Of a stretch of 64,000 nt of DNA, positions 14,080-58,255 are shown piece by piece; positions within the stretch are counted from its first letter, which is position 1, and every line of letters starts with the position of its first letter. The translations under genes and the position numbers were made by a program. Location: positions 128 through 64,127 of the forward strand of contig JALVTT010000157.1 of assembly GCA_027024025.1 (NCBI GenBank). Direction: 5' to 3'. A model generated the notes under the pieces. The model did not search any database, was not told the DNA's origin, and saw nothing but the letters and a program-made list of their open reading frames with translations. The DNA is from Sedimenticola sp. Its GTDB lineage: Bacteria > Pseudomonadota > Gammaproteobacteria > Chromatiales > Chromatiaceae.

Positions 14080-14103
14080 TTCAGACCCGGTCTGAATTCA
14101 AAG

Positions 14104-14134: not shown

Positions 14135-14144
14135 CATGTCTAGC

Positions 14145-16575: not shown

Positions 16576-16675
16576 TTTGTTGCTCCCTACCGGCCTGCCG
16601 GTACTAAACTTCTGTCTATGCGCCGGGCGGGTCTGATCCCGCCAAAAGGACCACTCTACCGGAAAAGCCAAAGTC

Positions 16676-17506: not shown

Positions 17507-17510
17507 AGCG

Positions 17511-33020: not shown

Positions 33021-33872
33021 ATGTCACTCGCCACCACCTACTGCCGCGCCGCGCTCGGCATCGAGGCCCCGCTGGTCACCGTCGAGACCCATCTGGCCAA
33101 CGGGCTGCCGGCCTTCAGCATCGTCGGCCTGCCCGAGAAGGCCGTGCAGGAATCACGCGACCGGGTGCGCTCCGCCCTGGTCAACAGCGGCTTCGAATTT
33201 CCCGCCCGCCGCATCACCGTCAACCTGGCGCCGGCCGACATCCCCAAACAGGGCGCGCGCTTCGACCTGGCGATCGCCATCGGCATCCTGGCCGCCAGCG
33301 CCCAGCTCCCCGACGCGCCACTGGCCGGGCTCGAACTGATCGGCGAGCTGACCCTCTCCGGACGGGTGCGGCCGGTGCACGGAGTGCTGCCGGTGGCCGT
33401 GGCCGCCCGCCAGGCCGGGCACAGTCTGGCCCTGGCGCGGGCCAACGCGGCCGAGGCCGCCCTGGTCGGCGGGCTGGAGATCCTGCCGCTGGACGGCCTG
33501 CTGCAGCTGTGCGCCCATCTCACCGGCCGGGAACGCATCGCGCCCTGGACGGACAACCCCGATACCGGGAACCGGCCGCAACTCCAAGCCGACCTGGCCG
33601 ATGTGCGCGGCCAGGCCCAGGCGCGGCGCGCTCTGGAGATCGCCGCCGCGGGACGCCACAATCTGCTGATGCAGGGCCCGCCCGGCACCGGCAAGTCCAT
33701 GCTCGCCGCGCGCCTGCCCGGCATCCTGCCGCCGATGAGCGAGGCCGAGGCCATGGACACCGCCGCCATCCACTCGGTGGCCGGCCTGGCGGTGGACCCG
33801 GCGCGCTGGCGCGAGCGCCCCTTCCGCAGTCCCCATCACACCTGTTCCGGCGTCGCCCTGGTCGGCGGCAGC
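33021..33872 (+). pseudogene. comM: comM (yifB) Mg-chelatase-like ATPase, 5' part (284 codons), interrupted by the transposon
   Basis: Starts MSLATTY..IVGLPEKAVQESRDRVRSAL, with the Walker A motif GPPGTGKSMLA. The ComM-like sequence ends at ..RSPHHTCSGVALVGGS, exactly at the transposon end. Confidence 0.9.
33868..33872. repeat. Target-site duplication, left copy (GCAGC)
   Basis: An identical pentamer directly abuts the other transposon terminus at 57594-57598. Confidence 0.85.
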
Positions 33873-33940
33873 TGTGACTTCCATCAAAACCCGCTACATT
33901 CCAACCAATTCCGCTACACTCCTCCCACACATTCAGCCGC
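33873..33940. repeat. Transposon left end
   Basis: TGTGACTTCCATCAAAA matches the reverse complement of the right end, TGTGATTTCTATCGAAA. Two CCGCTACA(T/C)TCC repeats lie at 33891-33902 and 33911-33922, spaced 20 bp apart. Confidence 0.8.
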
Positions 33941-33955
33941 AAGGGGGGACATACA

Positions 33956-35704
33956 ATGTCGTTTCGTCGGATCGCGACGATCCGTCGCCTGATCAATCTA
34001 ATCCCCAAGGAGAAAAGGAATTTTGCCGCATGGTGGTACGGTCGCCTAATCCCAAACGACAGGGAACGATCTCAACCCAAGATCGAGGTTTTGTTCCGGG
34101 AGGTAGATTCCGAGGGGAAGGCGCTGGGCAAAACGAAGATCTATCCGGTCAATATCGCCCTGCTCGGACAGGTCCCACTCGGGTCAATCTGGCGCGCAAA
34201 GCGAAACGTGGGGAACATCAAATTGACGCGCCGGGCGTTCAAGGTGAATTTCTCACCACAGGGGTGGGACACATTGCAGTCATTGCATAAAACTGAATCA
34301 GACCGTTACCTGATTCCACCCTTTTCCCATCCCCTCCTTCGAGGAGTCAACGCGCCCCTTATGGATTCATGGACAATACGGTTCAAGCTGGCTACCGGAG
34401 GGTTCCTGATTATCCCGGCCATCGAATATTTTGTTCGCGCCTACGGACTCTCCGGCGAGATCCACCGGATTCTGCTCACCTATTCTTGGAATGAAGCACT
34501 CAAACGCCTATTCGGAGATCACCAACCTCCTGTGGCAAAGAAAGAGAATGGCCGATGGATCGTTCACCCCGGCCCCTACATGCAGCAGAATGACACTCCA
34601 TTTCTCGCACACCTTCTCCACGACCAAAATACCCGCCGCCTGACGAAGAAGCTGCATGCCCAAGCGGAGACCGCCCATAACGGAAAATACCATTTGAGGG
34701 TCGAACCATGGCACCGGAACATCGGGTTGATCGAAGTGCTCGGTAAGCCTCTACCGGACAACGGCTTCCTCGGCCTTCGTATCTCAGGAATCGAGCTTCC
34801 CAAGCACCCACCAATCGACGTTATCCGAATCCATAAAGAACAGCCAGATGAAATAACCAATGGAGACAAGACCGGTGGGAACACCGTCATGCTGCAAACG
34901 ATCGCTTCCAGTCCGGACATGAAAATGGCGGATGATCAACCACCTGACCATGGCCTAGGGCACTTCGAGCTTACCACTCCCGCGTTCAAATGGCTCGGTG
35001 AACCAGGTGAAATCCGCAACGTCGTCCGTGAGGACGGAAAAATAGGACGGCCATCGACCTTGAAGTCGAACATCGTGGATACCGTGTCGGCTGGAGATCC
35101 GGCGGGTAGCCCCAAAGGCATCAGGAAGGTCGTCTCCCACACCCCGCTGCTCCTAGAGTCCATGGGGACACTGAAAGATATGTGGGACGCCTTCCATCAT
35201 TTGCAGAAACTGCATCCTGAAACGATCCTGGATGTTGGCTACGTGACGTGGGGGAAAGAGGTCCGCTGCGGAACCGAACCGGAGCTGTGCCCATTGCCGC
35301 GCCCAGTAGCTAACAGGAAGAATAAGAAAGGATTTTGGTATTTCATTGACAAAAACACGCCACGCGGTTTATTGCTGATATGGGTTAGGACAGCCGATTG
35401 CGAGGCTGTCATCGTGGAGATCCAGCGACGCACCGATCCAGCCAATCCAGAAAAAGAAAAAGAATCCTTCAAGGGATTGGCCATCCGCGTGAACGGCGAC
35501 CTCGGAAAGGTGCTGGACTGGCTGGAGCGTCTGGCGGCCAATATCGTCGAGAGCAAGGGCGTTTACACAAAGGCAATGCTGAGCTCGTGTCCCACGCTGG
35601 CCCGAACCTTCAAGCACGCGAAATCCCAGGGCGACACAAAAGCTGGAGAACATACGGCTTGGCGAGCGCTTGCAAAAGTGGGCTGCATGGAGAATAGAAA
35701 ATGA
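33956..35704 (+). CDS. Uncharacterised 582-aa protein, possibly a TnsE-like target-selection protein (weak, from memory)
   Basis: It starts 83 bp inside the left end and has an ATGA overlap with the nuclease gene. No catalytic motif was recognised. Local patterns (IIPAIEYFVRAYG, FLGLRISGIEL, EAVIVEIQRR...VLDWLERLAANIVESKG) resemble my recollection of Tn7 TnsE. Confidence 0.3.
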   Translation: MSFRRIATIRRLINLIPKEKRNFAAWWYGRLIPNDRERSQPKIEVLFREVDSEGKALGKTKIYPVNIALLGQVPLGSIWRAKRNVGNIKLTRRAFKVNFSPQGWDTLQSLHKTESDRYLIPPFSHPLLRGVNAPLMDSWTIRFKLATGGFLIIPAIEYFVRAYGLSGEIHRILLTYSWNEALKRLFGDHQPPVAKKENGRWIVHPGPYMQQNDTPFLAHLLHDQNTRRLTKKLHAQAETAHNGKYHLRVEPWHRNIGLIEVLGKPLPDNGFLGLRISGIELPKHPPIDVIRIHKEQPDEITNGDKTGGNTVMLQTIASSPDMKMADDQPPDHGLGHFELTTPAFKWLGEPGEIRNVVREDGKIGRPSTLKSNIVDTVSAGDPAGSPKGIRKVVSHTPLLLESMGTLKDMWDAFHHLQKLHPETILDVGYVTWGKEVRCGTEPELCPLPRPVANRKNKKGFWYFIDKNTPRGLLLIWVRTADCEAVIVEIQRRTDPANPEKEKESFKGLAIRVNGDLGKVLDWLERLAANIVESKGVYTKAMLSSCPTLARTFKHAKSQGDTKAGEHTAWRALAKVGCMENRK

Positions 35705-36201
35705 CCCTATGCACCATGCGATGGCCTGTGGCCGCTACTCTGGCGGTTCTACTTGTCCTTGTATGCCTGACCGCTGACGCTTCGCAGACGGTCATAGCAA
35801 GAATCGTCGGCATCATTGACGGGGACACCGTGAAGGCGCTCATCGACGGACACCAACAATGGAAGGTTCGCCTCGCGGAAATCGACACGCCGGAAAAACG
35901 GCAACCCTGGGGCAAGCGAGCAAGGCAGGCGCTGGCCGCCAAGATTTTCAGGAAGAAAGTGCGGATCGTCGTCACCGGCACCGACCGTTACGGACGTCGC
36001 ATTGGGAAAATCTACCTTGGAGACCGAGACATCAACCGGGAAATGGTGCGCGAGGGGCATGCCTGGGCGTACCGGAAATACCTGAGGGATCGCAGTCTGC
36101 TCGATGACGAGGCAGAAGCCCGGCGCGAGCGTCGCGGGTTGTGGTCGCTCCCGGAATCACAGCAGGTTCCACCGTGGAAGTGGCGACGGAGGCAACGCTA
36201 G
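35701..36201 (+). CDS. Secreted staphylococcal-nuclease-like thermonuclease
   Basis: Signal peptide, followed by the SNase catalytic pattern IIDGDT, RLAEIDTPE, DRYGRRIG and EMVREGHAWAY. Confidence 0.85.
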   Translation: MTLCTMRWPVAATLAVLLVLVCLTADASQTVIARIVGIIDGDTVKALIDGHQQWKVRLAEIDTPEKRQPWGKRARQALAAKIFRKKVRIVVTGTDRYGRRIGKIYLGDRDINREMVREGHAWAYRKYLRDRSLLDDEAEARRERRGLWSLPESQQVPPWKWRRRQR

Positions 36202-36211
36202 TCCTCTTTCA

Positions 36212-36229
36212 TGTAGGAATATTCCTACA
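36212..36229. other. Perfect 18-bp palindrome TGTAGGAATATTCCTACA
   Basis: The sequence is its own reverse complement. It lies 10 nt after the nuclease stop codon. It may be an operator or a hairpin. Confidence 0.5.
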
Positions 36230-36309
36230 CTGCCAGCGGAAACATCGCATGACGGATATTTGCTACCCTTATACGTGGGCCGACGCCGGGAAACGGAAGT
36301 CCTGGCCCC

Positions 36310-36345
36310 AGCAAACCCCATCTTTCCTGGATGGGGTTTGCTTTC
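36310..36345 (+). terminator. Hairpin terminator after the 582-aa/nuclease pair
   Basis: AGCAAACCCCAT-(9-nt loop)-ATGGGGTTTGCT forms a perfect 12-bp stem and is followed by TTC. Confidence 0.55.
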
Positions 36346-36419
36346 AACGAACAGTGATACGACGATCCCTGACAGGCTGCTCTGCCTTCGTGGGCGCATC
36401 CGAACACGGGTTCAAATTT

Positions 36420-36446
36420 GGCCATGATCCGGTTGAACGGTAAGAC
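36420..36446 (+). repeat. 27-bp direct repeat, copy 1
   Basis: GGCCATGATCCGGTTGAACGGTAAGAC matches 37535-37561 at 25 of 27 positions. Confidence 0.8.
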
Positions 36447-36660
36447 GAAACCCACCACGAACCTTGAGAAATTGCTGTGGCAGGCAGGCGGAAAGACTCC
36501 CGACGCCACGCTTGGCGAAAGGGAGTTGGCTGAAACCCTCGTCAAAGCCATTGATGTGATCAGTCGTGTAAAGCCGGAGCTCCTGGTGAAGTTCTATGAG
36601 GCAGGACGGAGAAAGGGTCTTCTGCCTCCGCTCGATGCAGGAGATTCCAACACCTCCTGA
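36424..36660 (+). CDS. Small ORF (78 aa); its N-terminus resembles the start of a Type I/IIG methyltransferase and may be a gene remnant
   Basis: MIRLNGKTKPTTNLEKLLWQAGGKT resembles the ..LE..LW.AAD.LRG N-termini of HsdM-type methylases and then diverges. Confidence 0.3.
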   Translation: MIRLNGKTKPTTNLEKLLWQAGGKTPDATLGERELAETLVKAIDVISRVKPELLVKFYEAGRRKGLLPPLDAGDSNTS

Positions 36661-36718
36661 GAAGCCACTTCCCGTCATTCGGTAGTCATTTCAGTGCAAG
36701 GGGCTGAGAGGGCAAGAA

Positions 36719-36913
36719 ATGTTGCGTTTGAACGAGAAAATCAGGCTGCATCCCAGTGAAGAAAGGGTATTTTCGATCCTGACCGGAGATCGGTCGGTCC
36801 CCTCTACCGTGGCTGAATACAACCGCAGCCTGGAACTGGCAAGGGCAGCTTGCCAGGGGGACAGCCCGGAGGAAAAGCTGCTCCAGCACATTATCGAAAA
36901 CCTGGAGACTTGA
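36719..36913 (+). CDS. Hypothetical small protein (64 aa)
   Basis: ORF with a TGATG stop/start overlap to the next ORF. No motif recognised. Confidence 0.3.
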   Translation: MLRLNEKIRLHPSEERVFSILTGDRSVPSTVAEYNRSLELARAACQGDSPEEKLLQHIIENLET

Positions 36914-37170
36914 TGAGGATGCGCAAACGGGAACCCTATGAACGGCTGGCCGACGGAACCATCCGTTTTCACGACAATGACTACGAGTCATGGAAGTCGC
37001 TGTTCCAGCGAGCCGGGTACGACATCGACAAGATCACCACCGAAGAGCAATACCGGGAAGCCCACTCCAAGGTTGGGGGACATGCTCATGACGGAATTGG
37101 TGGGTCGGGCAGCCAAGGGGGAGCCGGATGCCATCGCTATATTGAAGCCCTTCCTGGCCGGAGATTTTAG
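36913..37170 (+). CDS. Hypothetical small protein; only the first roughly 55 codons look like coding sequence
   Basis: MRMRKREPYERLADGTIRFHDNDYESWKSLFQRAGYDIDKITTEEQYREAH, after which the tail is Gly-rich. It overlaps the next ORF in another frame, so a frameshift is possible. Confidence 0.25.
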   Translation: MRMRKREPYERLADGTIRFHDNDYESWKSLFQRAGYDIDKITTEEQYREAHSKVGGHAHDGIGGSGSQGGAGCHRYIEALPGRRF

Positions 37171-37375
37171 CGAAATGCGGGCGGCGGCACGGCGCGCCAC
37201 GTTCGAGGCCCTGCCTGGCGGGCGGAGTCAACTCGAAGGGGAGCTGGTGGACATGCTTTTCTCGCCGGAACCCCTCAGCCCACGGTGCGACGAACTCCTC
37301 CAACGCCTGAACCACCGGGCGGACCTAAAGGTCGTTGCCGTGGGCAAGCGCGGCGAGGAAGCCAAGGACGCATGA
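37082..37375 (+). CDS. Hypothetical small protein (97 aa)
   Basis: The composition from MLMTELVGRAAKGEPDAIAILKP looks like coding sequence. A T6 run follows the stop codon. Confidence 0.3.
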   Translation: MLMTELVGRAAKGEPDAIAILKPFLAGDFSEMRAAARRATFEALPGGRSQLEGELVDMLFSPEPLSPRCDELLQRLNHRADLKVVAVGKRGEEAKDA

Positions 37376-37534
37376 CCCCCGGGCGGTTTTTTGGATTCAG
37401 GATTTCGCGATCACGGGGCGCATCCGCTTAACCCACGCCGGGATCGAGCACTTCAATCTTATACCAACTGCCACCCTCAGCTCGAACACAGGCTTGGCAT
37501 GACGAAGTTGAGTAATGCACACCCAACATTTTTG

Positions 37535-37561
37535 GGCCATGATCTGGTTGAACGGTAGGAC
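37535..37561 (+). repeat. 27-bp direct repeat, copy 2, 48 nt upstream of the helicase-nuclease start
   Basis: GGCCATGATCTGGTTGAACGGTAGGAC. Confidence 0.8.
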
Positions 37562-37608
37562 TAGAAATTGGCCTTGTGAATTCAGGCTCACAATGAAGAA
37601 AGAAAGCT

Positions 37609-44940: not shown

Positions 44941-45139
44941 ACTGAGAGAACCAGAGCTGGAATGTTTCTCCCCACCTACTGTCGCCTGTAAAGAATGCCG
45001 GCACCGTCAAGCCCAGGCCGCCAGCGAACAAGAAAAAAACGACTCAGTTAATCAGGCAGGGGGTAATAGCCGTCTGAAATGGCCGGTTACCACGTTCCAG
45101 CGCCCATCGCCCCGAGGAGACACACGGTAAGTCCTTCCC

Positions 45140-46744
45140 TCAAGGCGTATCCCGTTTCCCCCGCAGCCGGCAACGCATAGTCGCTGGCCGACCACTATCG
45201 AAATATGGGAGCTCGATCTCCTCGTCGATGGTCGTACAGTAGTTCTCAGCAAACAGTTGCAAGTGCGCCGCATCCCGAGCCACATCAGAGTCGGCGGGGA
45301 GGTGCTGAAGAATGGCGTCACTCACAAACATGATGAACTTGCTGCGAGCTCGGGTTAAGGTCACGTTGAATCGTCTCGGGTTCAGAATGAATGCCTCTTC
45401 TGCGGCGACGAAATCGCGGTCAGCGACAACGTAGCTTGCTATCATCAGGTCCCGCTCCTGGCCCTGGAACCTGTCTACTGTATCCACGAATGGCGGTGGA
45501 TCCATGGGCATCCCAGCTGCGTCTACCAGGAGGTTTTTGATGGTAGACATCTGCGCCCGGTGAGGCGTCACGATGCCTAGATGCTCTGACCAGAACTGCT
45601 GGTCACCGGGGCCGTTGCCGTCCTGCTCAAGGATGCGTCGGTACAGCAGGGCAAGAGCCGTAACCATCTGGGCTTCAAACGGATTTGAAAGCGTCGACAT
45701 GTGAACGCCATAGCTGATGACGACCACCGGTATCTCCGGGTCGAGGATCCTTAGAAATAGATCACTCCATGGCAGGTTTGCCGGCCACCCATCCGGCGGG
45801 CTACCTATTGCAGGCAGAGCAATGCCGAGCCTTCGTTCTGGGAAAAACGCCTCGTATCCTTCGCTATAGAACCGCTCCTTGGGCCATCCAGAAATCTCCG
45901 TGTTTGTCCGGTAATTGCGATCCAGGGCAACAGGATCTTTGCCGTGGGTTTCCTGCATGTACGAGAAGATGCAATCGAAAAGCCCCTGAACGCTGTCTCG
46001 CATTTCGAATCCGTAGATCGGACCAAGCTGCTTGTGATCTCCAGCGAGGATTACATGCCCGTCTTCACGCAGAAGCAGGAAATAGGCTGCCGCGTATGCC
46101 ACCGGAACCTGCGATGCTTCGTCGATCACCAGGAGATCGAACCATCTGGCGACTGGAGTCCCATCACCCGAAACAACCTCTGCGAGTCGCCCAAGTTGCG
46201 TCCAGGTGCCACCAACCACCACACATTCTGTCCGCTCATGCATGGCTCCAGCCAGAACGCGTGCTGCCTGTGCCGTGCGAACAACGTCTTCGATGCATTC
46301 ATCGAGAGGAGGCTTCGCCGATTCGTTGCGCAGGCGCGCAATGCGCACATTGCCGGGCAGCTCGCCCAGGACAGAGGCGCGTTGGCCCAGCAAGTCCGCA
46401 ACTTCTCTCAGGACGTTGTCGATGGCGTTGTAATTGCTCGCGCCGACTCCGACCGTGATCGGTTCACCGCTCTGCCATGCGTTTTCTATCCAACCCAAAA
46501 TGACGCCAGCCAGCACGGTTGTCTTTCCGGTCCCCGGTGGACCCCACAGCAATGACAACCGGTCTGTGAACGAGCTATGAAAGGCGTCCGCTTGGCGGGG
46601 ATTGAAGGAGTGCTTCTGGTACTGTGCAACCTGGTTCAGAAGGTCCTCGACCTCTCCGTGGCTACGGGTGACCTGCAACTGCCCGGGCTCATACAGGAAG
46701 CCATGAGCGGGTTCTGTTCGGGGATATTGTACGCGCCTTGCCAT
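45140..46744 (-). CDS. Upf1/Dna2-like SF1B helicase (AAA_11/AAA_12 type)
   Basis: Contains WGPPGTGKTT, LVIDEASQV, LAGDHKQLGPI, DRNYRTN, IVTPHRAQ, VDRFQGQERD and FNVTLTRAR. ATG 46744 lies 2 nt after the upstream stop codon, behind a GGAGGAGGG Shine-Dalgarno sequence. Confidence 0.85.
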   Translation of the reverse strand: MARRVQYPRTEPAHGFLYEPGQLQVTRSHGEVEDLLNQVAQYQKHSFNPRQADAFHSSFTDRLSLLWGPPGTGKTTVLAGVILGWIENAWQSGEPITVGVGASNYNAIDNVLREVADLLGQRASVLGELPGNVRIARLRNESAKPPLDECIEDVVRTAQAARVLAGAMHERTECVVVGGTWTQLGRLAEVVSGDGTPVARWFDLLVIDEASQVPVAYAAAYFLLLREDGHVILAGDHKQLGPIYGFEMRDSVQGLFDCIFSYMQETHGKDPVALDRNYRTNTEISGWPKERFYSEGYEAFFPERRLGIALPAIGSPPDGWPANLPWSDLFLRILDPEIPVVVISYGVHMSTLSNPFEAQMVTALALLYRRILEQDGNGPGDQQFWSEHLGIVTPHRAQMSTIKNLLVDAAGMPMDPPPFVDTVDRFQGQERDLMIASYVVADRDFVAAEEAFILNPRRFNVTLTRARSKFIMFVSDAILQHLPADSDVARDAAHLQLFAENYCTTIDEEIELPYFDSGRPATMRCRLRGKRDTP

Positions 46745-46746
46745 GA

Positions 46747-49453
46747 TCAAACCCTCCTCCTTCTTCTCCTTTGCATCGGGGGAGGGTTGCCACCAATGGC
46801 GCGCAGCGCTTGCTCTATCCTTCGGCTGGAGAAGTCCTGGTACAGCGGATCGAGAACCATCGGCTGATCCATATCAAGAATGCCCTCATCTTGAGCCAGC
46901 CTAAACAAACCACTATTAGATGGCCTGAGCACCAGAAACGGGGGCTCATGCGTCGCTACCAAACGCACCATCTCAACCTGAAGTACTTTTCCAAGTGAAG
47001 CATTCACCATCCACTCTTCATCCAACCCGTATCCATCCAACAGATCCTTTGCTTCGTCGAACGATGATAGACCCAAGTGTATTCGCCACGGAACGTCGAG
47101 TTCGATGTCGGAGTCTTCATTGGATAATGCCAATAGAAAGTCCCCTTCATTTATCCTGGCATCTCGTGATGTGTGAGCAAACGTAAAGGCAAGGAGTTCA
47201 GCGCCAACATAACGGGAATCCGATCTGCGTACCCCTTTGATACAGTCCTCGTACCCCCCCCCCGATGGCTGGCTGAATCCCGCGAATTGAAAAGAAACGA
47301 GCTTCCCGCTCGTCAACGGGAAGTGCCCGGCGCTGTCGGTTCTCAATCTCCTGGGTTGCTACATTCAGCTTCTCGAAGGCGATGAGGCTGCGAGCACGCT
47401 CAGGGACCTTCATCTGCTTTGGTGGAGCAGAGCTGAACGGAGACTTTCGAAGCATAAGCCGGTCACGGTAATGCTCCCGTAGTCGCCTCACGATATGCTG
47501 CAGCGCTCGGAGATGGACGCGTGTTGCGTGCTTGACCCCCTCATAGAGCTCGTCTCGCGTGTATGGCCGCCACCGCGATGGTTGACCCGGAAACCTTGGG
47601 TCAAAATGTCTCAGAAAAATCTTGTCCTGCCATAACTCGTAAGCCCGCTCAAAGGGGATCTGGTCGCTCATGGGAGTGCTGAAGCCGAACGGCAGTTGGA
47701 ACCGGTAAGGGTCACCATTCTCGTTGCGAACGGGAAAGAGTGTGTTGGCTGTCTCGAACAGGGAATAATCATGCGCAATTGGAAGGCCAAGAAGCAGTCG
47801 GACGACATCCTTCACGATAGTACCCGGCTGAGACTTGAACAGCTCTGGGTCAGGCAAGAGATCGTCCGGTGGAAAGAGACGAATCAGCAGCTCTATCAGG
47901 TCCACGACCTCCGGGTGGTTCATGTGTCTCTCGAACATCCGCCGAAGCTGGCGGACCTCGAGCATGTCCCAGAGAAAGATATGGGATGAAAGGAGCTTGT
48001 TAAGCTCATTTCCTTTCTTACCCTGCCGTTTTAGGTGCTTGTTCTCCTCTCCTAATTCTTTGTTCTTCTCTGATACTTCTTCAAGCCACCGAGAGACGAG
48101 GGTGACGAACTCCACCAGGCGGGCCCGCTCTGTATCCGGGTTCATTGCGTCGACGCGGTCCACGACAAACACATGTTCTTCCGTTTGGGGTGGATCCCCC
48201 TGACTGCGGCCCGGTGGGAAGTACACTCGGGCGGCGCCCATGGCGAACGTAATGCCGGAACCGGGATCGAAGTGGACCGTAATGAAGATGTTCTGGTCGC
48301 TCCATGCAGGCATAAGTGAGCATTTGCGCCCCTCAATAACGACGGGCTCGTTGGTGTGGAGTGCTTCGGCTCGCACCAACAGAGCTGGACGATCAGCGCG
48401 AAGCTGGTGACTTGACGCTTCTGCGGCCTGCCACTCCGTTGTGCTGCCTCTGATGGCCTCCCTCAAGCTCTGCGTGGTCGCGATTCCGTTCTGGCGCAGA
48501 AGCTCGGCTTGTCCCTGATTGAGCCACGGCAGCCGGGAGAGATGGTCACAGTTCTCCGCCTCCTGCTTGCAGTATCGGACGTAGTCACATAGCTGGCACT
48601 TTGGCCCCACGTGCCAAGAGGCCTCTTCCGGTCTCTGCTCGAGAACCCGGAGTAGTCGTTCCTCGAAGAACTGCTTGACGTGGACCTGGTACACCTCGTA
48701 GGGGACCGGCACGAGGGTGTCCTGTAGGGCTGAAGTAACAGGGTCACTATCTCCTCTTGCTTCGTATTCACGAACAAGATTCCGGAAGGCGTTAGCATCA
48801 TGACTACCAGGCCAAATGAACCCCTCTGCGCTCACAGCGTATCGATCCGACAGGCCCTGTTCCGCCAATGCCGCCGCCAGCGAGAGCGCGTAGTAGGTGA
48901 CTTCCGTAAAATGGCGAAGGGAAGGCTCGGCCGCCATTTTCACGTCAATCACATGTAGCTCGAACTCCGGCACAGGATCCGGATCGCCGATAAGCGGATG
49001 TCCCGTGCCGCCGGCTCGAATCCATATGATGTCGGGACGGGCTCTTACGGTCTCCAAACCGTAGGTGTCGTATGCCTCTTGGAGACCCGGTGTGATATTT
49101 GACGGAACCTCGAACTCAGCTTCGATGATGGCAAATGGCGGGCTCTCACGCCGCAAGATTTCGAACAGGTTCTCGACCTTACCGAATGGCTTCCGACCAA
49201 CAAGCTCATCGACCTCTTCCTTCTCGACATACTCGACGGCGTCCGGCGGTGAAACGTCGATAAGATCCTGGTACTTGTCCGCCTCCCACCGACGCCCGGC
49301 CGCCTTGATCAGTTCGATACCGGGTCGCTTGTAGGTATCGGCTTCGATGCAGAGAGAGTCTTTTTCGGCGTCGGATGCCAGCCGAAATCGAAGAAAGCGG
49401 TCACAATCAAACTTGAATGTGAGCGCGAGCGTGCCTTTGTCCAGCCGGGGCAT
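46747..49453 (-). CDS. Large Cas4-like PD-(D/E)XK Fe-S nuclease with an RNase-H-like middle region (TM0106-family-like). As sequenced it is split into two frames (49453..47198 and 47346..46747) by a frameshift in a G10 tract
   Basis: Contains FKFDCDRF, PDIIWIR, ELHVIDVKM, TYYALSL and CQLCDYVRYC (a Cas4-type Cys4 arrangement), then an HhH-like LNQGQAELLRQNGI and IFITVHFDPGSG / HIFLWDMLEV. Both frames look like coding sequence on their respective sides of the tract. Confidence 0.7.
47254..47263 (-). repeat. Homopolymeric tract, G10 on the coding strand (C10 on the plus strand)
   Basis: Counted directly in gtaccccccccccgatgg. It lies within the 149-nt overlap of the two nuclease reading frames. 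Confidence 0.95.
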
Positions 49454-49454
49454 G

Positions 49455-51641
49455 TCAGTTGCCTCCTCGTTCTCTTGTGCGATAGAGTGCCGTGTGAAGT
49501 GGCACGGACTCGTCGTCTGCCTTTCCCAGGACCGCCGACGCCACAATCATGGCCCGTTCCAGGTTCAGGCGGTCTGGCTCTCGGAAGCCGATTCGTTTCT
49601 TATCGCCGAGTTCCTTGGCGTAGGCATCCGCACGGCATCTGGCATCGGCCATAGCGCTGCGCGGAACGACCACTGGACAGGACTCTCCACCGGGCGCCTG
49701 TGCATCCCTGCGGCATATGAATACGGCATCCCACTTGATGGTTCCATTGTAGGAATGAAGCCCCCCCTGACCCTCACCGCGAAGGGGCAGGACGGCGGTA
49801 CACCTGAATCCCGATCTGGCCAGCGCCTCGCCTACAGCATTCCACGCAGCAATGTGCTTGTGGTGATAGGTGAAGACAAAGACTCCATTCCGTTTGAGCA
49901 CACGCCGGCATTCGGAGAAGATCCGCTGGAGCCTTTCACGATAAACCGCAATCGACTCGTCGGCTCGGGAGGTCAAGGCGAGGTTCTCTCCGATAGGGAC
50001 CGCAAGGTGCGGATCATCGAATGGAGGTTCCGCCTCTCCAAGGGACTGGTGCCAGGCCAGGTAGAAGTCGGAGAGCTCCGAGTAGCTCAGGTTATCGAAG
50101 TACGGAGGATCCGTGAGGATGAGGTCGATGGTTCCATCGGGGATCTCGGCCAGATCCTCGGAAGTTTTTGTGCGTATGGAAGCTCTTGAGGAGCCGGTCA
50201 GGACCTGCCAGGGGTTGGCAGAAACCTCCGAGGCGTAAACGTGCTCTCCCGCCTTGGACGGAACGCGGCCGCCTTTCGGGTCCAACTCGGTCGGGGCCTT
50301 GGCAAACGCCACCGCCTTCGTGATCTTGCTGAGAGTGTTCGGAAACGTACCTCGCCCAATACCCTCGAGCCATGGATTGATTTCCACCGGCCTCGTGATG
50401 TGCCGGTAGGAATGGATTGAGAACATAGGGCTTACGCGGCGGTAGCCGAAAGCATACGCCGTGTACATGCAGTTCGTGGTGAGATGCTCGCTGAAGGCCA
50501 TAGCAAGGACGCGCCGGGCACGAGGCTCATCCACCGCTGCGATGGCCTTGCCAAGCAGGGTCAGATGTAGCAGCTGCCGGTCGTTGAAAAGGTCTCGATA
50601 CCTTCTGAAGCCGTGGATAATAGGTCGCTGGTCTGAGCGGCCATCTGTCGGGATCTCGCGCATCGGCGCAAACGGGCCCTCGGAGCCCTCAATCTCCTTG
50701 AGAAGGCGCGAGGCTTTTCCGTAGCGAATACGATCTCCTTTCGTCACCTTCTTGAAATGCCGCGTTACGCCACCTGGGTTTCGCTCGATGTATTCTTGGG
50801 CAAACAAGCGCCACGCCGGGGGCGTCGGACTATCTCCACGATCAGCGAGACCCGTTATGTCGCCACATGCGGGACAGCGAACCTTTCCACGATTGAGGGT
50901 GCCCCGTGCGATACGGGTCCGGGTCCCGCACGTACAGCGGATTTCCTTCCGCTCTATCGGAAGCTCGTGGACTTCGTGGCATGTCTTACAGAAGGCCCAC
51001 TGGAGCCCCTTCTCCTTGTTGGACGCCAACTGGAAATGCGGATGGATCTCGAAAGAGGTCCCGCAGGAACGACAGGTGCGACACTCCACCCAGAAGTGAT
51101 GCAAGACCTCATGCTCCCGGCCTTTGACTTTGGTCCTGTGGAAAGGTGCCAGCTGGGCAGCAATGGAGGCGCAGAGCTCGGCAATCTCCTCGCTCTCGGG
51201 ATCGTAGGCAGCTGCTTCCAGTTCAAATCTCGTGATGAACGTGGCTACCGGGTCGATGTCGTATCCAATCACGTGTGCACCACAGCGCATGGCTTCCACC
51301 AAGCTGGTTCCCCCTCCGACGAAGGGATCCAGGACCACCGCGCCGTCCAGAGGCACCTCACCCAGGAAGGTGTCCCAAAAGCGGTTCGCTTCATCAGCAT
51401 CAAGCGAAAGACCGGTCAAGATTGACCGGAACTGAGAACCAAGGCGTCGAGCGAACCAGCGGTGAACCCGATAGAGCGGGTTCGTGCATTGACCTTCCCG
51501 CATGGCAAGTTCAGCGATTTCGGCAATCGGAATTGCGCCCGACTCCAGTAGGGTCGTGTCCAGGAAACCGTGCAAGTGAAAGCGTGGGACGTCCTCTCGA
51601 GCCCCCCGGCGCTTCTGGGATGTGGATTGCACGAGCGTCAT
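49455..51641 (-). CDS. DUF1156/COG1743-type DNA methyltransferase with Zn-ribbon insertions
   Basis: N-terminal YRVHRWFARRLGSQFRSIL (the DUF1156 signature WWARRP-like), motif I VLDPFVGGGTSLVEA, CxxC pairs (CRTCRSCG, CKTCH, CTCG, CPACG) and motif IV ILTDPPYFDNLSYSELSDFY. Confidence 0.8.
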   Translation of the reverse strand: MTLVQSTSQKRRGAREDVPRFHLHGFLDTTLLESGAIPIAEIAELAMREGQCTNPLYRVHRWFARRLGSQFRSILTGLSLDADEANRFWDTFLGEVPLDGAVVLDPFVGGGTSLVEAMRCGAHVIGYDIDPVATFITRFELEAAAYDPESEEIAELCASIAAQLAPFHRTKVKGREHEVLHHFWVECRTCRSCGTSFEIHPHFQLASNKEKGLQWAFCKTCHEVHELPIERKEIRCTCGTRTRIARGTLNRGKVRCPACGDITGLADRGDSPTPPAWRLFAQEYIERNPGGVTRHFKKVTKGDRIRYGKASRLLKEIEGSEGPFAPMREIPTDGRSDQRPIIHGFRRYRDLFNDRQLLHLTLLGKAIAAVDEPRARRVLAMAFSEHLTTNCMYTAYAFGYRRVSPMFSIHSYRHITRPVEINPWLEGIGRGTFPNTLSKITKAVAFAKAPTELDPKGGRVPSKAGEHVYASEVSANPWQVLTGSSRASIRTKTSEDLAEIPDGTIDLILTDPPYFDNLSYSELSDFYLAWHQSLGEAEPPFDDPHLAVPIGENLALTSRADESIAVYRERLQRIFSECRRVLKRNGVFVFTYHHKHIAAWNAVGEALARSGFRCTAVLPLRGEGQGGLHSYNGTIKWDAVFICRRDAQAPGGESCPVVVPRSAMADARCRADAYAKELGDKKRIGFREPDRLNLERAMIVASAVLGKADDESVPLHTALYRTRERGGN

Positions 51642-52933
51642 GATCCACCTACCTTCGCAGCTGGCAAGCTTTCCGTGCGTAGATCAATCAAACCTTGGTC
51701 AAGACCGTTCCTAGGACGCATAATCTTAAGAGGTAGTGGAACCCAATACTCCTTCCCTCTACTACGAACTACCAGCCCTCCATCCAGTACGTCGGTCAAT
51801 TCTGTTGTCTTGGGCATTGGCTGCCCATGAAAATACCTCATTGCGACCCTTGCCCACTTCCTCCGGAACTCCGGCGTATCCTCCGGATTCTTCATCATGG
51901 CGATGAGCTGGCGTTCCAACCTTGCCTTGCTGCGCTCCTTCGCCCGCTTCTCGTCCGTCTGCGGCACCAGGCTCACTCCCTGCGCTTCATTGATGAAATT
52001 CACGAACCCCGTGATATTCGCCTTCTGCCCCGGCTTGTCCAGCAGGTAGGCGTCGAGATCTGGCTGGACGGGTACGCACCCCTCTGCCCGGAGCACCAGA
52101 TCCGCCGCCGCCGAGAGCACCATGCGGACGCTCCGCAGCGAGGTTTTCCCTTCCTCCAAACGAGCCATCAAACGCTCGCGGTAAGCATGCCACAACGCTC
52201 CTCCGGCGGTCGAGGCGTCAATTCTCTCCCCCAGCTCCCTGATACGCCGCCGTTCGGAATCCTCCTCCCGCGCCTTTTCATCCACCTTCAGCCGTCCGGA
52301 TTGCTCCATCCACTGGATCGCCAGCCTTACCCGACGCAACCCCTCCGCATGAAAGCGCGCCACCAGTTCCTTGTAGTCCGGGATGCAGCCCCATTCGGCG
52401 TCCATCTCCTGGAAGAAGGCAAGGTACTTATTGATCCGGATGGCCGCCACGTTCGCGCCCCGCCGCGCCTCCAGCCAGCGCCCGAACACCCCAAATTCCT
52501 CGGCCAGGCCATTCCCAAGGCCCGCCTGACAGATCGCAATCCGCTTCTCCAGCAAATCCTTCCAGTAGCAATCCTCGCAACGGTCTCCCCGGCCTGCTGG
52601 CATGGGGCTTCCGCATTTCAAGCAGGAACGGATTCCCTCATCCAAGCAAGGCCGACACAACAACCGTCCATCATCCGCCTTTATCAGCCGCCGATGTCTG
52701 CCGCACGCAGGGCAGGTAGCGTGATCGGCCCGTTGACATACGGGACAGACCGGCTCATCAATGCCCAGCCGCAACGCACGCGCCAAGTGCCGAGACATGC
52801 GCCCACAGCGCGGGCATGGCTCCGGCTCCCGAAACCAGGGAACACAGGCGTTGCATACGGGACCTTCCGGCCTGCGCAGCCCCGTGGGCCGCCCCTTGCG
52901 ACCGCACCGGATACATGCCTCATCCGGCCTCAT
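51638..52933 (-). CDS. Cys-rich multi-Zn-ribbon protein of unknown function, in the fifth position of the tns operon (TniE-like by position only)
   Basis: At least 7 CxxC pairs lie in the first roughly 130 aa, followed by a helical C-terminal half. ATGA overlaps occur with tniQ upstream (start taken at ATG 52933) and with the methyltransferase downstream. Confidence 0.6.
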   Translation of the reverse strand: MRPDEACIRCGRKGRPTGLRRPEGPVCNACVPWFREPEPCPRCGRMSRHLARALRLGIDEPVCPVCQRADHATCPACGRHRRLIKADDGRLLCRPCLDEGIRSCLKCGSPMPAGRGDRCEDCYWKDLLEKRIAICQAGLGNGLAEEFGVFGRWLEARRGANVAAIRINKYLAFFQEMDAEWGCIPDYKELVARFHAEGLRRVRLAIQWMEQSGRLKVDEKAREEDSERRRIRELGERIDASTAGGALWHAYRERLMARLEEGKTSLRSVRMVLSAAADLVLRAEGCVPVQPDLDAYLLDKPGQKANITGFVNFINEAQGVSLVPQTDEKRAKERSKARLERQLIAMMKNPEDTPEFRRKWARVAMRYFHGQPMPKTTELTDVLDGGLVVRSRGKEYWVPLPLKIMRPRNGLDQGLIDLRTESLPAAKVGGS

Positions 52934-54042: not shown

Positions 54043-54899
54043 GACTTCGCCTCCACGATTTCTGGGGTGATGCATTCGATACCCGACTGGATGGCCTCGG
54101 TGGCGCACTCGATCAGCAGCCGGTGCAGGTCGCCCAGGTTGCCGCCACTGATCGCATGCAGCCGCCGGGCCAGCTCCGGGCGGTTCAACCCCGAAGGCTT
54201 GCGCAGCGGCAGGACCTGTTCGAAACCGACGAGCAGCCGTACAAACGGCTTGTCCAGATCCCACAATCCAAGCCGCACCACGTCGAACCGGCTGGCGTGC
54301 TGCGGATCGGAATGGAGCACCCGCACCGCCTCCGCCGTGCCCACCCCGACGATGGGGATGCCCAGCTCATTGCACAGCAGCTTGATGGCGTTCATCACCT
54401 CCCGCTGCTTGACCGGCGTCCCGGTCAGCAGGGAATGGAACTCGTCGATGACCAGCATGCGGACATGGCAGTACCGCATCAGGTGGATGAGCTGGTATCG
54501 CATCTTCGGTGCCGGGTCAGTGGCCCGGTAGGGGGTCCTGAACCGCTCCAGGATGGAAACGTACAACCCCTTCTCATCAGGCTTTGGCGGCGCCTCTGCC
54601 AGCACCACGGGGATGTGCGGCTCTCCCTCCTCTTCATCTACATGGGACTGACCGTGAAGCTGAACGAAGCGGCGGACCAAGGTGGTCTTGCCGTTGTTTG
54701 GCTCACCGACAATCAACAGGTTGAGCATCCGGGGCCGGGTGGGCATTTCCATCAAGGCGCGCATCCGCCTGATGATCTCGTTGGCCTGCGGATAGCCCAG
54801 CCAGCGAGGTTCGTACAGGAACCGGATGCGCTCCTCGTTGGATAGCCCGGCAACGTGCCGGAAATCCGGGTGAATATGGGAAAGATCCATGTCCGTCAT
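54000..54899 (-). CDS. tnsC: TnsC/TniB-type AAA+ transposition ATPase
   Basis: Walker A GEPNNGKTTL and Walker B MLVIDEFH. ATGA overlap with tnsB. Confidence 0.85.
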   Translation of the reverse strand: MTDMDLSHIHPDFRHVAGLSNEERIRFLYEPRWLGYPQANEIIRRMRALMEMPTRPRMLNLLIVGEPNNGKTTLVRRFVQLHGQSHVDEEEGEPHIPVVLAEAPPKPDEKGLYVSILERFRTPYRATDPAPKMRYQLIHLMRYCHVRMLVIDEFHSLLTGTPVKQREVMNAIKLLCNELGIPIVGVGTAEAVRVLHSDPQHASRFDVVRLGLWDLDKPFVRLLVGFEQVLPLRKPSGLNRPELARRLHAISGGNLGDLHRLLIECATEAIQSGIECITPEIVEAKSWVKPTRGIREVVR

Positions 54900-56773
54900 T
54901 CGATCTCACCAAGGGGTTCGTCAACCTGGAAAATGTCGTCATCCGCCTCCGGGACCTGCGCGGATACATCCTCCGCGGCCTGCGTGGACTCGACGGTAGC
55001 GGCTCGCTCCCTGTGATCCCGGCGTTTCTGGAGACTGCGCCGCGCCTTCTTGGTACGGGCCGCCGACTCCCGCGTCCGCTCGCGCAGCTCCTCCAGAGCC
55101 TCCAGAACGCGCCGCTCGTCCACCGCCTTCATACCTTCCTCCCGCGCCCGGTCACGCGCCTGCCGGTACTCCCATACACTCATTGGCGGCAGGGCCTGGT
55201 TGGCGAAGGGCACACGGAAATACTGGCGTAGGTCTGGATCGAAAAACCAAACCACACTGATGTCGCGAGGGTCGCGGCGGAAGGTGAACTTGCGCTTGGA
55301 CTTCGGATTGTCCGGGTCCGGCGCGCCGATCCAAGGTCGCAGCACGTCGGCATAGTAAGCCAGCCCCTCGATGGTCACACCATCCGGCTGGATGGTGCGC
55401 CGGAAACGTGGCAGGAAATCCAGCAGGAACGCCACCCGGTCGCCAGGTATCTTGGGCAAGCCACGCCCCGTTTCCCTTCCATCGCCAAACAGCCCGGTTT
55501 CCCACTTCTTGAGGGGCGGCATGCCGATCCCCGAGTGGATACGCAGGTGATACACCTTGCAGATCAGGGTCGCCAGCCATGCCTCGAACTCCTTGAGGGT
55601 CATCACCGCATGCTTGTCTGGCTGGTACTCTCCACGCTCCTTGATCGACGAGAAGGTGGTTCCCGGCAAGTCGTGGATCTCCTTGAGCAAAGTCCCCAGC
55701 AAGCGCTCGATGTGCCCCCCGAAGCGCGGCTGGCGGACGGGCCGGTACTCCAAGTTGATGCCGTGCAGCGCGCAGGCGTCGCGAAAGGTCGAGGAACGGA
55801 ACTCCGCGCCGTTGTCCACATGGATCGTGTCCATGAGGCCATATACAGGCCACTCCAGATCCTCCAGCCCAAGGCGCGCCAACCATTCGTCCTTCGGCAG
55901 TACCGCGTGAGCTACGCACATCGCCACGGAGGTCTCCGACGGGGCGTCGAACGAGACATAGAGACCAGCCACCATACGGGAGAAAACATCCATGGCCAGC
56001 GTGACCCAGGGCCGCCCGATGGGCTGTCGGTACTGGTCGTCCACCAGTACAACATCAACCGGCGTGTGGTCGATCTGCACATAGGCGAAGGGATAGTCCG
56101 CACCAGGGAAGGAACCCGGAGCAGGCGCGTACCGCTCCTCGGCCTCCTTTCTACGCCCCCGCCGCTTGAGGCGTTCACGGGGATGGATGGCGGCGACCCT
56201 GGCGCGAATGGTGTTGGCGTGGGGCGGCTGAAGGCCCATCTCCAGGCAACGCCGCCGCACCTCCAGAACCACTTTCTGCGCCGGTGCACGCTGGCGGGTC
56301 AGGTACACCGCCTCGATCACCTCGTTGATGATGGACTCCACGTCGTCCGGCAGGCGGTTCTCGCCGCGCCTGCGCCCGCGCTTTCGGGGTAGCAGAGCCT
56401 CCAAGGTGCCCGCCGCTTCGTAGCGGTTGAGCCAGCGGTAGAGGGTGGTGAAGTGAACGCCGACCTCGCTGGCGCGACGCTCGATCTCCTTCCGTCCAAT
56501 GCCAGGCTCCAGCAGCGGACGTATGGCCTCCATTCGGAAACGCGCAGCCTCAAGGTCAGCCTCGTCGATCTCCTCCAGTTCGCGGAAGGGGGCGGAATCT
56601 TCGGATACGGGAGCCAGATCGACGACGCGCAACGCCTTCTCCCGCCCGGTGGCCGGGTCCAGGCCGACAACGGTCTCGTAGTCGAGGATACTCCGGATCT
56701 CGTACACCCGACCATCGTGCAGCACCCGCCCACCAATAGACAGATCGAGAACGCTCCGTCCACTACCGCTCAT
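54896..56773 (-). CDS. tnsB: TnsB-type DDE (Mu/rve) transposase
   Basis: Contains QIDHTPVDV (D), IHVDNGAEFRS (D) and GGHIERLLGT (E), with N-terminal helix-turn-helix regions. Confidence 0.9.
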   Translation of the reverse strand: MSGSGRSVLDLSIGGRVLHDGRVYEIRSILDYETVVGLDPATGREKALRVVDLAPVSEDSAPFRELEEIDEADLEAARFRMEAIRPLLEPGIGRKEIERRASEVGVHFTTLYRWLNRYEAAGTLEALLPRKRGRRRGENRLPDDVESIINEVIEAVYLTRQRAPAQKVVLEVRRRCLEMGLQPPHANTIRARVAAIHPRERLKRRGRRKEAEERYAPAPGSFPGADYPFAYVQIDHTPVDVVLVDDQYRQPIGRPWVTLAMDVFSRMVAGLYVSFDAPSETSVAMCVAHAVLPKDEWLARLGLEDLEWPVYGLMDTIHVDNGAEFRSSTFRDACALHGINLEYRPVRQPRFGGHIERLLGTLLKEIHDLPGTTFSSIKERGEYQPDKHAVMTLKEFEAWLATLICKVYHLRIHSGIGMPPLKKWETGLFGDGRETGRGLPKIPGDRVAFLLDFLPRFRRTIQPDGVTIEGLAYYADVLRPWIGAPDPDNPKSKRKFTFRRDPRDISVVWFFDPDLRQYFRVPFANQALPPMSVWEYRQARDRAREEGMKAVDERRVLEALEELRERTRESAARTKKARRSLQKRRDHRERAATVESTQAAEDVSAQVPEADDDIFQVDEPLGEIE

Positions 56774-57422
56774 CGTCAGCCACCCAAACCATGGTGTCGT
56801 TGGTCAAGGGTTCGAACAGATCGCATTCGAGCCTTCCTGTAGCGACCAGATGCCAAGCCACAGCGATCCCGTGGGCCTTGCCATGTGGCCCCCACTTGGG
56901 AAAACAACAAGCGTCCACCAGCCGTCGGAAAGGCAGGCACCCCAAGCTCCGGGCCGTGTCGAGCAACCAATCCGCCAGATCCGTGTCCACGGCGATCTTG
57001 CGGTAGCGTGCCAGGAAACGCATGTTTTCCCACGCTTGGTCACGGACACGGCCCTCGTGCATGAGGCGGAACACGAACCCATTCTCCAGGCAGTACCGCG
57101 TGGCAGCGCGAAATTTTGGCTTCCACTTCTTGAGATTGCGAACCAACTTCTCTCGGGGTTTGACCTCGACCAGCTCGGAAGGCAAGTGCCGACCATACCT
57201 GGGCAATACGCCATGCTGCCGGTAATGGACGAGGTAATCCGGTGTGTAGGGGTGCTCGCTTCCGTTGGCACGGTAGCGGATGGTGACCGGCTGGGAGATT
57301 ACCTCGATAACCGAGCGGTCGGCTTCCAGACGGATGAGGAAGTCACGCTCCAGCGTGGATTCAAAGGCGATGGGCGTTTGACCCCGAAACAGGTAGATAC
57401 CCGAAACGCTCTGGCGCGTCAT
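56763..57422 (-). CDS. tnsA: TnsA endonuclease (restriction-enzyme-like 5'-end cleavage subunit)
   Basis: Contains FESTLERDF, YTPDYLV and ELVEVKP (an E...D...EVK catalytic pattern). ATG 57422 follows a GGAGGAAGG Shine-Dalgarno sequence. A GTG at 57485 is an alternative start. Confidence 0.85.
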   Translation of the reverse strand: MTRQSVSGIYLFRGQTPIAFESTLERDFLIRLEADRSVIEVISQPVTIRYRANGSEHPYTPDYLVHYRQHGVLPRYGRHLPSELVEVKPREKLVRNLKKWKPKFRAATRYCLENGFVFRLMHEGRVRDQAWENMRFLARYRKIAVDTDLADWLLDTARSLGCLPFRRLVDACCFPKWGPHGKAHGIAVAWHLVATGRLECDLFEPLTNDTMVWVADDER

Positions 57423-57485
57423 GCCAACCTTCCTCCGAGGCGGCCCATCAGAAACTTTGTAGTGGATTTTGGTATTCAAAACCAC

Positions 57486-57593
57486 CCTCCGTAGCAGCTA
57501 TTGACGTTAAAGTGTAGCATAAATCGACAGAATCATAGCCTTTAAGTTATTGAAATATTGTTTTGAGTGTAGCTTCTTTCGATAGAAATCACA
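57486..57593. repeat. Transposon right end with 3-4 TnsB-type subterminal repeats
   Basis: TGTAGC motifs lie at 57568-57573 and 57513-57518, with the variants CATAGC at 57534 and GTAGC at 57491. The terminus reads ...GAAATCACA. Confidence 0.8.
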
Positions 57594-57598
57594 GCAGC
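57594..57598. repeat. Target-site duplication, right copy (GCAGC)
   Basis: It directly abuts the terminal ACA and is identical to 33868-33872. Confidence 0.85.
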
Positions 57599-58255
57599 AG
57601 TCTGCCCCGGCCGGGCGAGATCTCGCTGGCCCACAATGGCGTGCTGTTCCTGGACGAGCTGCCCGAATTCGACCGGCGGGTCCTGGACGTGCTGCGCGAG
57701 CCGATGGAGACCGGGCACGTCGTGATCTCGCGCGCCGCGCGCAGCGCGCGCTTCCCGGCCCGCTTCCAGCTGGTCGCCGCCATGAACCCCTGTCCCTGCG
57801 GCCACCTCAACCAGCCGGAGCGACGCTGCGCCCAGTGCACCCCGGAATCGGCGGCCCGCTACCAGGCACGCATCTCGGGGCCGCTGCGCGACCGCATCGA
57901 CATCCAGATCGAAGTCCCGGCCATCCCCACCCGCGAGCTGATCGACCAGGCGGAACCCGGCGAGCCCAGCGCCCGCGTGCGCGAACGGGTGACCCGGGCC
58001 TGGGCCCGCCAGCTCGAACGCCAGGGCTGCGGCAACGCGCAACTCGAACACGCCGCCCTGGAGCGCCACTGCCGACTGGCGCCCCGCGAACGCACCCTGC
58101 TCGGCAACGCCATCGAGACCCTGGGCCTGTCCGCCCGCGCCTACCACCGCATCCTGCGCGTGGCGCGCTCCATCGCCGACCTCGAAGGCAGCGAGACCAT
58201 CCACGCGGCACACCTGTCCGAGGCCATCAGCTACCGGCGGCTGGACAAGGCCTGA
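57594..58255 (+). pseudogene. comM: comM 3' part (about 218 codons)
   Basis: In frame, it reads S-SLPRPGEISLAHNGVLFLDELPEF (Walker B) ...FQLVAAMNPCPCG... and continues to the stop codon. It joins seamlessly to 33021..33872 once the transposon and one target-site-duplication copy are removed. Confidence 0.9.

Follow-up and report, generated by a model that had tools for sequence, protein, structure and literature searches.

What has split the comM gene in this 64,000-nucleotide stretch of DNA from Sedimenticola sp. (contig JALVTT010000157.1; the whole stretch is called the window below), and how does such an insertion come to lie exactly where it does? A first-pass annotation had proposed a Tn7-like transposon that uses comM in the manner of the Tn6022/AbaR-type elements of Acinetobacter. 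Our analysis supports a complete and probably still mobile Tn7-like transposon of the Tn6022 family, sitting at the family's fixed attachment point in comM, and we give this reading a probability of roughly 0.9. It is carried by direct observation of the anatomy of the element, of the homology of its backbone to that of Tn6022, of an identical insertion point and orientation, and of an empty-site allele in a second sample.

The split comM gene and the ends of the insertion

When positions 33873–57598 are excised, the two parts of comM (33021–33872 and 57599–58255) join into a 1509-nt frame whose sole stop is terminal and which encodes 502 amino acids (aa). In tblastn searches the restored protein aligned end to end (residues 1–501/502) with the intact comM of six genomes of the same genus, at 74–76% identity and unbroken at residue 284/285. 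The Pfam Mg_chelatase profile ends at position 93 in the left half and is picked up at position 97 in the right half. The continuous ComM of about 500 aa that the first-pass annotation had predicted is thus recovered, and the comparison with relatives that it suggested gave a colinear alignment, with no break in colinearity seen.

Directly outside the insert, GCAGC stands on both sides as a 5-bp target-site duplication (TSD; 33868–33872 and 57594–57598). The element proper (33873–57593, 23,721 bp) begins with TGTGA and ends with TCACA, and its termini share TGTGAyTTCyATCrAAA...GCTACA, with about 20 of the first 27 nt alike. A 20-nt consensus drawn from the ends occurs four times in the window, against an expectation of 0.31, and none of 100 shuffles gave four; the copies form a tandem pair on the plus strand at the left end (33879–33898, 33899–33918) and lie on the minus strand at the right end (57513–57532, 57568–57587). 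Junctions and termini are therefore as first annotated. The GCTACA(C/T)T repeats, counted there as two on the left and three to four on the right, come down to two clear copies per side, the extra right-end copies being weaker. The proportion of G and C (GC) is 67.7–68.0% in the flanks, 73–74% in comM, 56.6% in the whole element, 58.6–65.6% in the tns genes and 47.5–59.4% in the cargo genes. The cargo is lower in GC, as had been claimed, and is clearly foreign by this measure; the tns genes, described earlier as host-like, are so only roughly, lying 2–9 points under the flanks.

To place the insertion among known elements, plasmid records were searched by tblastn with TnsB, which returned Acinetobacter elements at 43–50% identity, one of them in an A. 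baumannii chromosome of 4.09 Mb that is listed among plasmid records. In this chromosome, NZ_CP104448.1, a 12-kb Tn6022, located with both ComM halves, splits comM at the same residue as in the window. The first Acinetobacter match in that record (L011) was a related element with no comM within 11 kb of its tnsA, and was rejected as the counterpart. Gene order and orientation are equal in the window and the NZ_CP104448.1 Tn6022, with identities of 40% for TnsA, 39% for TnsB, 46% for TnsC and 29% for TniQ. The A. baumannii TSD, GCGGT (the published ACCGC on the opposite strand), falls on the same 5 nt of the comM frame, which reads ALVGGG/SHPKPGE there and ALVGGS/SLPRPGE in the window. With homologous target nucleotides, the same orientation and five homologous operon proteins, the proposed Tn6022/AbaR strategy at comM holds. 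The codons of the Walker B motif VLFLDE (57641–57658) lie 43 nt from the TSD, and the attachment site of Tn6022 has been mapped to the Walker B region of comM (PMC10293859). By analogy, this part of comM is probably the attachment region of the TnsF protein described below.

Backbone genes and the selection of comM

The gene set of Tn6022 comprises tnsA, tnsB, tnsC, a tniQ of the short form (369 aa), tnsF (orf3/tniE) and, at the end away from the operon, a gene for a distant TnsE (PMC10293859, PMC11014353). In the window the tns operon lies on the minus strand and runs from the right end into the element, in the order tnsA, tnsB, tnsC, tniQ and then tnsF, and all six backbone genes are full length (Table 1). 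The conservation of motifs in TnsA, TnsB and TnsC was judged in alignments of 73–78 homologues. The genes named in the first-pass annotation (tnsA, the DDE transposase gene tnsB, the AAA+ gene tnsC and tniQ, inward from the right end) all matched their Pfam profiles; the list was right as far as it went, and lacked the family's two defining genes, tnsF and, at the left end, the tnsE-like gene. The longest open reading frame (ORF) of tniQ overlaps tnsC, and its likely start is the ATG at 54042, which has GGAGG upstream. Nearly all of 150 TniQ homologues are 350–380 aa long. The marks of Tn7 proper, a long TnsD and an insertion downstream of glmS, were not found: TniQ has 370 aa with the TniQ domain only, and the insertion lies within comM.

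With 35% identity (E 2e-78), the product of the gene directly behind tniQ matches that of the gene in the same position (orf3/tnsF) in A. baumannii Tn6022. It is cysteine-rich and matched no Pfam family. Across 25 homologues, 16 invariant cysteines form eight CxxC pairs, all within the first 122 residues. Its AlphaFold model (predicted local distance difference test score, pLDDT, 91.9) ends in a short sheet. When this model was compared with the PDB by Foldseek, no match fell below E 0.1 and the rows for Cre, XerD, IntI and LIM were weak; it took an exhaustive aligner to find the core-binding domain. This comparison matched residues ~240–326 to tyrosine-recombinase core-binding domains with Z 7.2–8.3 and a root-mean-square deviation (rmsd) of 2.2–2.6 Å; the matched proteins were the Brujita integrase, XerD, lambda Int and IntI, with coverage limited to their N-terminal domains. 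As modelled, the protein has four zinc fingers made of CxxC pairs, helical domains that resemble core-binding domains, a short sheet at its C-terminus and no catalytic domain, which fits the published description of TnsF.

Work on Tn6022 has shown that TnsF is needed for insertion into comM, that its binding site covers both the insertion point and a 10-bp conserved part of the Walker B codons, and that it also binds TniQ (PMC10293859); TnsABC and TniQ are not enough for comM without it (PMC11014353). By analogy, the selector of comM in the window would be TnsF, with TniQ as an adaptor rather than a TnsD-like DNA binder. A complex prediction of TniQ (residues 240–370) with TnsF (225–431) scored 0.36, with a control at 0.59, and was not used either way. 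Transposition would begin with TnsF, which here has zinc fingers and predicted catalytically dead, tyrosine-recombinase-derived domains, binding the stretch of comM that includes the insertion point and the Walker B codons. The short TniQ would bridge TnsF to the AAA+ adaptor TnsC, which would in turn recruit TnsA and TnsB for cut-and-paste insertion, the tnsA-proximal right end facing Walker B and a 5-bp TSD being left behind.

A second targeting pathway is suggested by the 582-aa tnsE-like protein encoded inward from the left end. Residues 397–579 of its model match the TnsE C-terminal domains 9d5l, 5d16 and 5d17 with Z 12.8–13.0 and an rmsd of ~3 Å, 146–147 of ~158 residues being aligned; the next unrelated match has Z 5.2, and Foldseek gives a probability of 1.0. 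No sequence-level family was found by Pfam on 24 homologues, a PDB profile search, PADLOC or NCBIfam. Its homologues hold the same position in related elements. Since TnsE of Tn6022 steers insertion into a conjugal plasmid (PMC11014353), the tnsE-like protein may, by analogy, offer another route of insertion, into DNA other than comM that is probably mobile.

The tnsE-like gene is coupled to a staphylococcal-nuclease-type (SNase) gene whose start overlaps its stop. This pair recurs in L096–L098 and in L082, a Burkholderiaceae element (L096 16395–16781; L082 18970–19224); the A. baumannii copy of Tn6022 and the minimal Pseudomonas element L063 lack it. A speculative reading, which we consider doubtful, is that the SNase is a backbone accessory of a sub-lineage rather than cargo, acting as an exported nuclease that degrades incoming DNA or in the second pathway, and that defence and transposition genes are co-expressed. 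If the nuclease did degrade incoming DNA, the element would hinder transformation in two ways, through the split comM and through destruction of the DNA itself.

Relatives, an empty site and rival readings

A survey of related loci (TniQ profile search, one genome per species) gave 79 loci. A tnsF homologue directly follows tniQ in 73 of them, and the other six end at a contig edge or have a truncated tniQ. In 66 of the 79, the 3′ half of comM adjoins tnsA on the opposite strand, with the junction on the same codon; the sequence there runs ...ACA, followed by five bases from the GG(G/S) codons and by (S/A)xP(R/K)PGE...VLFLDE. Many of the hosts are Pseudomonadota, and others belong to the Verrucomicrobiota, Acidobacteriota, Thermodesulfobacteriota and Synergistota. 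Seven loci of the TniQ clade (L025, L057, L058, L062, L071, L078 and L084) have at least 2 kb upstream of tnsA with no comM fragment there, one of them on an Acinetobacter plasmid, and are candidate insertions at other sites or beside other elements.

In a TnsB tree, which was midpoint-rooted only and has A. baumannii Tn6022 on a long branch, the window groups with L016 and L096 (support 100) inside a supported clade that includes the Acinetobacter elements. L096 (JGI metagenome 3300028908) and L016 (Gammaproteobacteria metagenome-assembled genome S144_22) are the closest relatives (TnsB 78%, TniQ 69–79%). Both share their ends and their comM junction with the element of the window, and L096 also carries the tnsE-like and SNase pair at its left end; it differs in being 12.3 kb long with a small methylase cargo, whereas the window carries ~15 kb of other cargo. 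L096 (TniQ 79% identical to the window) lies in comM with the TSD GCCGC. A copy 99.94% identical to it over 12.3 kb, L097, occupies positions 6433–18753 of its locus, inside a D12-class methylase gene with the TSD GTCGA, and its neighbours are plasmid- or phage-like (HTH_17, DUF4326/YAcAr, HU, DUF7007 and a C5 methylase). The pair demonstrates recent mobility in this lineage, and the L097 site is consistent with a second, non-comM pathway.

The host can be placed through a complete congeneric genome, whose ComM has the same sequence as BAN69949.1 from the sulfur-oxidising gammaproteobacterium that lives as an endosymbiont in the scaly snail. The host thus belongs to the same class as Acinetobacter, the Gammaproteobacteria, and to the genus of the scaly-foot-snail symbiont. 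The "distant, high-GC host" of the first-pass annotation is therefore high in GC (~68%) and less distant than it was made out to be, and the transposon family is already known to be widespread. The host genome has a single copy of the element. It also retains ComEC and DprA homologues, so that a competence pathway with a role for ComM is plausible. Splitting comM probably weakens transformation-driven recombination and would lower the chance that the element is deleted; the idea that the insertion protects the element in this way, also put forward in the first-pass annotation, is reasonable and has already been published and tested for AbaR (PMC11441513).

DNA of the window was found in hydrothermal-vent metagenomes. 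In run X2, another sample of the study probably behind the window, a contig passes position 33872 into 25 nt unique to 57599–57623, giving an empty site with a single GCAGC, and a separate 7.9-kb contig spans the occupied left junction. An empty allele thus exists in the community, which does not imply a recent move of this copy. Runs X3–X7, which hold less than 30% of the sampled words, were left out of claims about habitat and strains. Within runs X5–X7 (one coded organism), the stretch 33849–34389, comprising the left end and the comM junction, reaches a depth of ~3000 with ~2% differences, and that organism seems to carry a close relative of the element in its comM too.

Several points weigh against a complete and mobile Tn6022-family element. 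The proteins of the window are just 29–46% identical to those of the experimentally studied Acinetobacter Tn6022, and its TnsF has 431 aa against 481–498 aa in Acinetobacter. The tnsE-like protein gave no match by tblastn against two Acinetobacter elements and no sequence similarity could be detected between it and Tn7 TnsE or any part of the A. baumannii copy of Tn6022; its assignment covers the C-terminal domain of the model only, by fold and position. The empty site is one contig with a 25-nt loose end, seen in assembled contigs rather than raw reads, and that contig could stem from a co-occurring sister strain rather than from recent movement. One cargo gene is in two frames, and the activity and binding ascribed to this element draw on the Acinetobacter Tn6022 experiments.

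The same element might instead now be a fixed, immobile genomic island, the fossil of a Tn6022-type insertion. Such a fossil would fit the single copy in the genome, the frameshifted cargo gene and the fact that no transposition has been observed for this copy, yet we consider it unlikely, given that the six backbone genes are full length with their catalytic motifs kept, that both ends and a perfect TSD are retained, that an empty-site allele occurs in the sister sample and that the closest relative has moved recently. A different division of labour was implicit in the first-pass annotation, in which TniQ alone would read comM as TnsD reads glmS and the 431-aa protein would be cargo or a regulator. 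Pfam does find a zinc finger beside the TniQ domain, and the right end does face conserved comM sequence; however, the 370-aa TniQ lacks the long C-terminal DNA-binding extension of TnsD, and the 431-aa gene overlaps the tniQ stop, follows tniQ in 73 of the 79 surveyed loci and is homologous to tnsF of Tn6022, in which TnsABC and TniQ miss comM without TnsF (PMC11014353, PMC10293859). This makes targeting by TniQ alone improbable.

Since comM is a hot spot for several unrelated types of element (PMC10293859) and the contig comes from a metagenome, we also considered another comM-homing element (a Tsy transposon, an integrative and conjugative element or a prophage) and an assembly chimera of foreign DNA with comM. 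Pfam found no integrase or tyrosine-recombinase catalytic domain in the larger ORFs, and a heteromeric TnsA/TnsB transposase, TGT...ACA ends and a 5-bp TSD are present instead. A chimera is at odds with the presence of both comM halves on one contig and with the 7.9-kb contig of an independent sample that bridges the occupied left junction. The Tn7 genes, the ends, the TSD and the bridged junction led us to reject these readings, which are hardly credible here. A Tn6022-family transposon guided to comM by TnsF remains our preferred explanation.

Cargo and comparison with known elements

Table 1. Features of the element and of the split comM gene, in the coordinates of the window.
Feature	Coordinates	Strand	Basis
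comM 5′ part, codons 1–284 (ChlI and first half of the Mg_chelatase AAA+ domain)	33021..33872	+	PF13541, PF01078 positions 1–93; colinear with congener comM
Left TSD copy, GCAGC	33868..33872		sequence; same 5 nt of frame as GCGGT in A. baumannii Tn6022
Left end: terminal TGTGA and two tandem 20-nt TnsB-site-like repeats	33873..33918	+	sequence, repeat count
tnsE-like gene, 582 aa	33956..35704	+	AF2 (AlphaFold2) model fold, position; inward from left end
SNase-type gene, 166 aa, N-terminal hydrophobic leader	35701..36201	+	PF00565 91.8 bits; translation
Small ORFs without family matches	36202..37608		no Pfam match
UvrD-type helicase fused to PD-(D/E)XK nuclease, 971 aa	37609..40524	+	PF00580 252.8 bits, PF12705 84.2 bits; GajB-like and DRT-helicase-like PADLOC matches
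N6/N4 DNA methyltransferase, type III Mod-like, 601 aa	40521..42326	+	PF01555 178 bits; PADLOC MTase_III, MTase_II
Res-like helicase with C-terminal PD-(D/E)XK nuclease domain, 873 aa	42319..44940	+	PF04851; PF08722 at residues 790–860
Superfamily 1 (SF1) helicase, 536 aa, AAA_11/AAA_12, DpdJ-like	45140..46750	-	Pfam, PADLOC, NCBIfam
RecB-like nuclease gene in two frames, 782-aa and 199-aa ORFs	46747..49546	-	ORF list; weak TIGR03491 match
DUF1156-like DNA methyltransferase, 728 aa	49455..51641	-	PF01555; NF042963 and PADLOC PglX/HmaB/DUF1156_MTase, partial matches
tnsF, 431 aa from ATG overlapping tniQ stop	51638..52933	-	35% identity to A. baumannii Tn6022 gene after tniQ; fold; invariant Cys
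tniQ, short form, 370 aa	52930..54042	-	PF06527; start = ATG behind GGAGG
tnsC, TniB-type AAA+, 299 aa	54000..54899	-	PF05621 243 bits; Walker A GKT 70–72, Walker B DE 152–153 conserved
tnsB, DDE transposase, 625 aa	54896..56773	-	rve and Mu-transpos_C; D235, D320, E356 conserved
tnsA, endonuclease subunit, 240 aa	56763..57485	-	PF08722, NF033179; D83, E107, K109 conserved
Right end: terminal TCACA (57589–57593) and TnsB-site-like repeats (57568–57587, 57513–57532)	57511..57593	-	sequence, repeat count
Right TSD copy, GCAGC	57594..57598		sequence
comM 3′ part, codons 285–502	57599..58255	+	PF01078 positions 97–206, PF13335; sequence

The ~15 kb of cargo between the two backbone modules is lower in GC and defence-like, with restriction-modification-like (R-M-like) and helicase/nuclease genes; Tn7-like elements usually carry defence cargo (PMC8649781). 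Within the element GC is lowest in the mod gene (47.5%), against 52–53% in the neighbouring helicase and res genes, which suggests a mosaic origin of the R-M module. Residues 790–860 of the Res-like protein match the Pfam TnsA-like endonuclease family, which reflects the common PD-(D/E)XK fold and not a second tnsA. Pfam scans of the small ORFs at 36.1–37.2 kb and of guessed flanking ORFs were empty.

In the RecB-like gene the frame changes at 47254–47263, a run of ten C that reads as ten G on the coding (minus) strand. By frame arithmetic, one G less would give a single ORF of ~930 aa; the run could reflect phase variation, a true frameshift or a homopolymer error. The start of the DUF1156-like methylase gene overlaps the tnsF stop (51638–51641), and from tnsA through the SF1 helicase gene (45140–57485) all genes lie on one strand and overlap or abut. 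Cargo and transposition genes may share transcripts.

The family, its TnsF selector, the comM site and the habit of carrying defence cargo have all been published, and this locus adds little to transposon biology as such. Its value is that of a well-delimited natural example with exact ends from a hydrothermal-vent sulfur oxidiser, in which occupied and empty alleles appear to coexist in sister samples. The closest relative, found in near-identical copies inside and outside comM, gives field evidence for the two pathways known from laboratory work on Acinetobacter. Firm boundaries also allow the cargo modules, which may include less well described defence systems, to be judged as mobile passenger genes.

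The Tsy transposons resemble this element in that a TnsF-type protein targets the same Walker B region of comM; they differ in having no Tn7 genes, no inverted-repeat ends, the opposite directionality and an active TnsF homologue (PMC10293859), whereas the window has no tyrosine-recombinase (YRec) gene, a TnsF without a catalytic domain, and tnsABC. With Tn7 the element shares a heteromeric TnsA/TnsB, an AAA+ adaptor, two targeting pathways (the second of them predicted here), a 5-bp TSD and a right end near the recognised sequence. It differs from Tn7 in that its TnsC is of the short TniB type, its TniQ is without the DNA-binding C-terminus of TnsD, its target is within comM and not downstream of glmS, and it adds the selector TnsF.

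Tn6022/AjTn6022, the backbone of the AbaR and AbGRI resistance islands, has the same layout as the element in the window: the operon tnsA-tnsB-tnsC-tniQ-tnsF occupies the right end, and a tnsE-type gene points inward from the left one. The TniQ proteins are of nearly the same length (369 and 370 aa), the identical 5 nt of comM are used with the right end towards Walker B, and both elements have a 5-bp TSD and TGT...ACA ends with repeated sites. The window differs in the leader-bearing SNase coupled to the tnsE-like gene, which has no counterpart in the A. baumannii copy, and in its cargo of R-M and helicase/nuclease modules, where Tn6022 carries uspA/sup and resistance genes. The hosts differ as well: Acinetobacter for Tn6022, and for the window a sulfur-oxidising gammaproteobacterium of hydrothermal vents with 68% GC.

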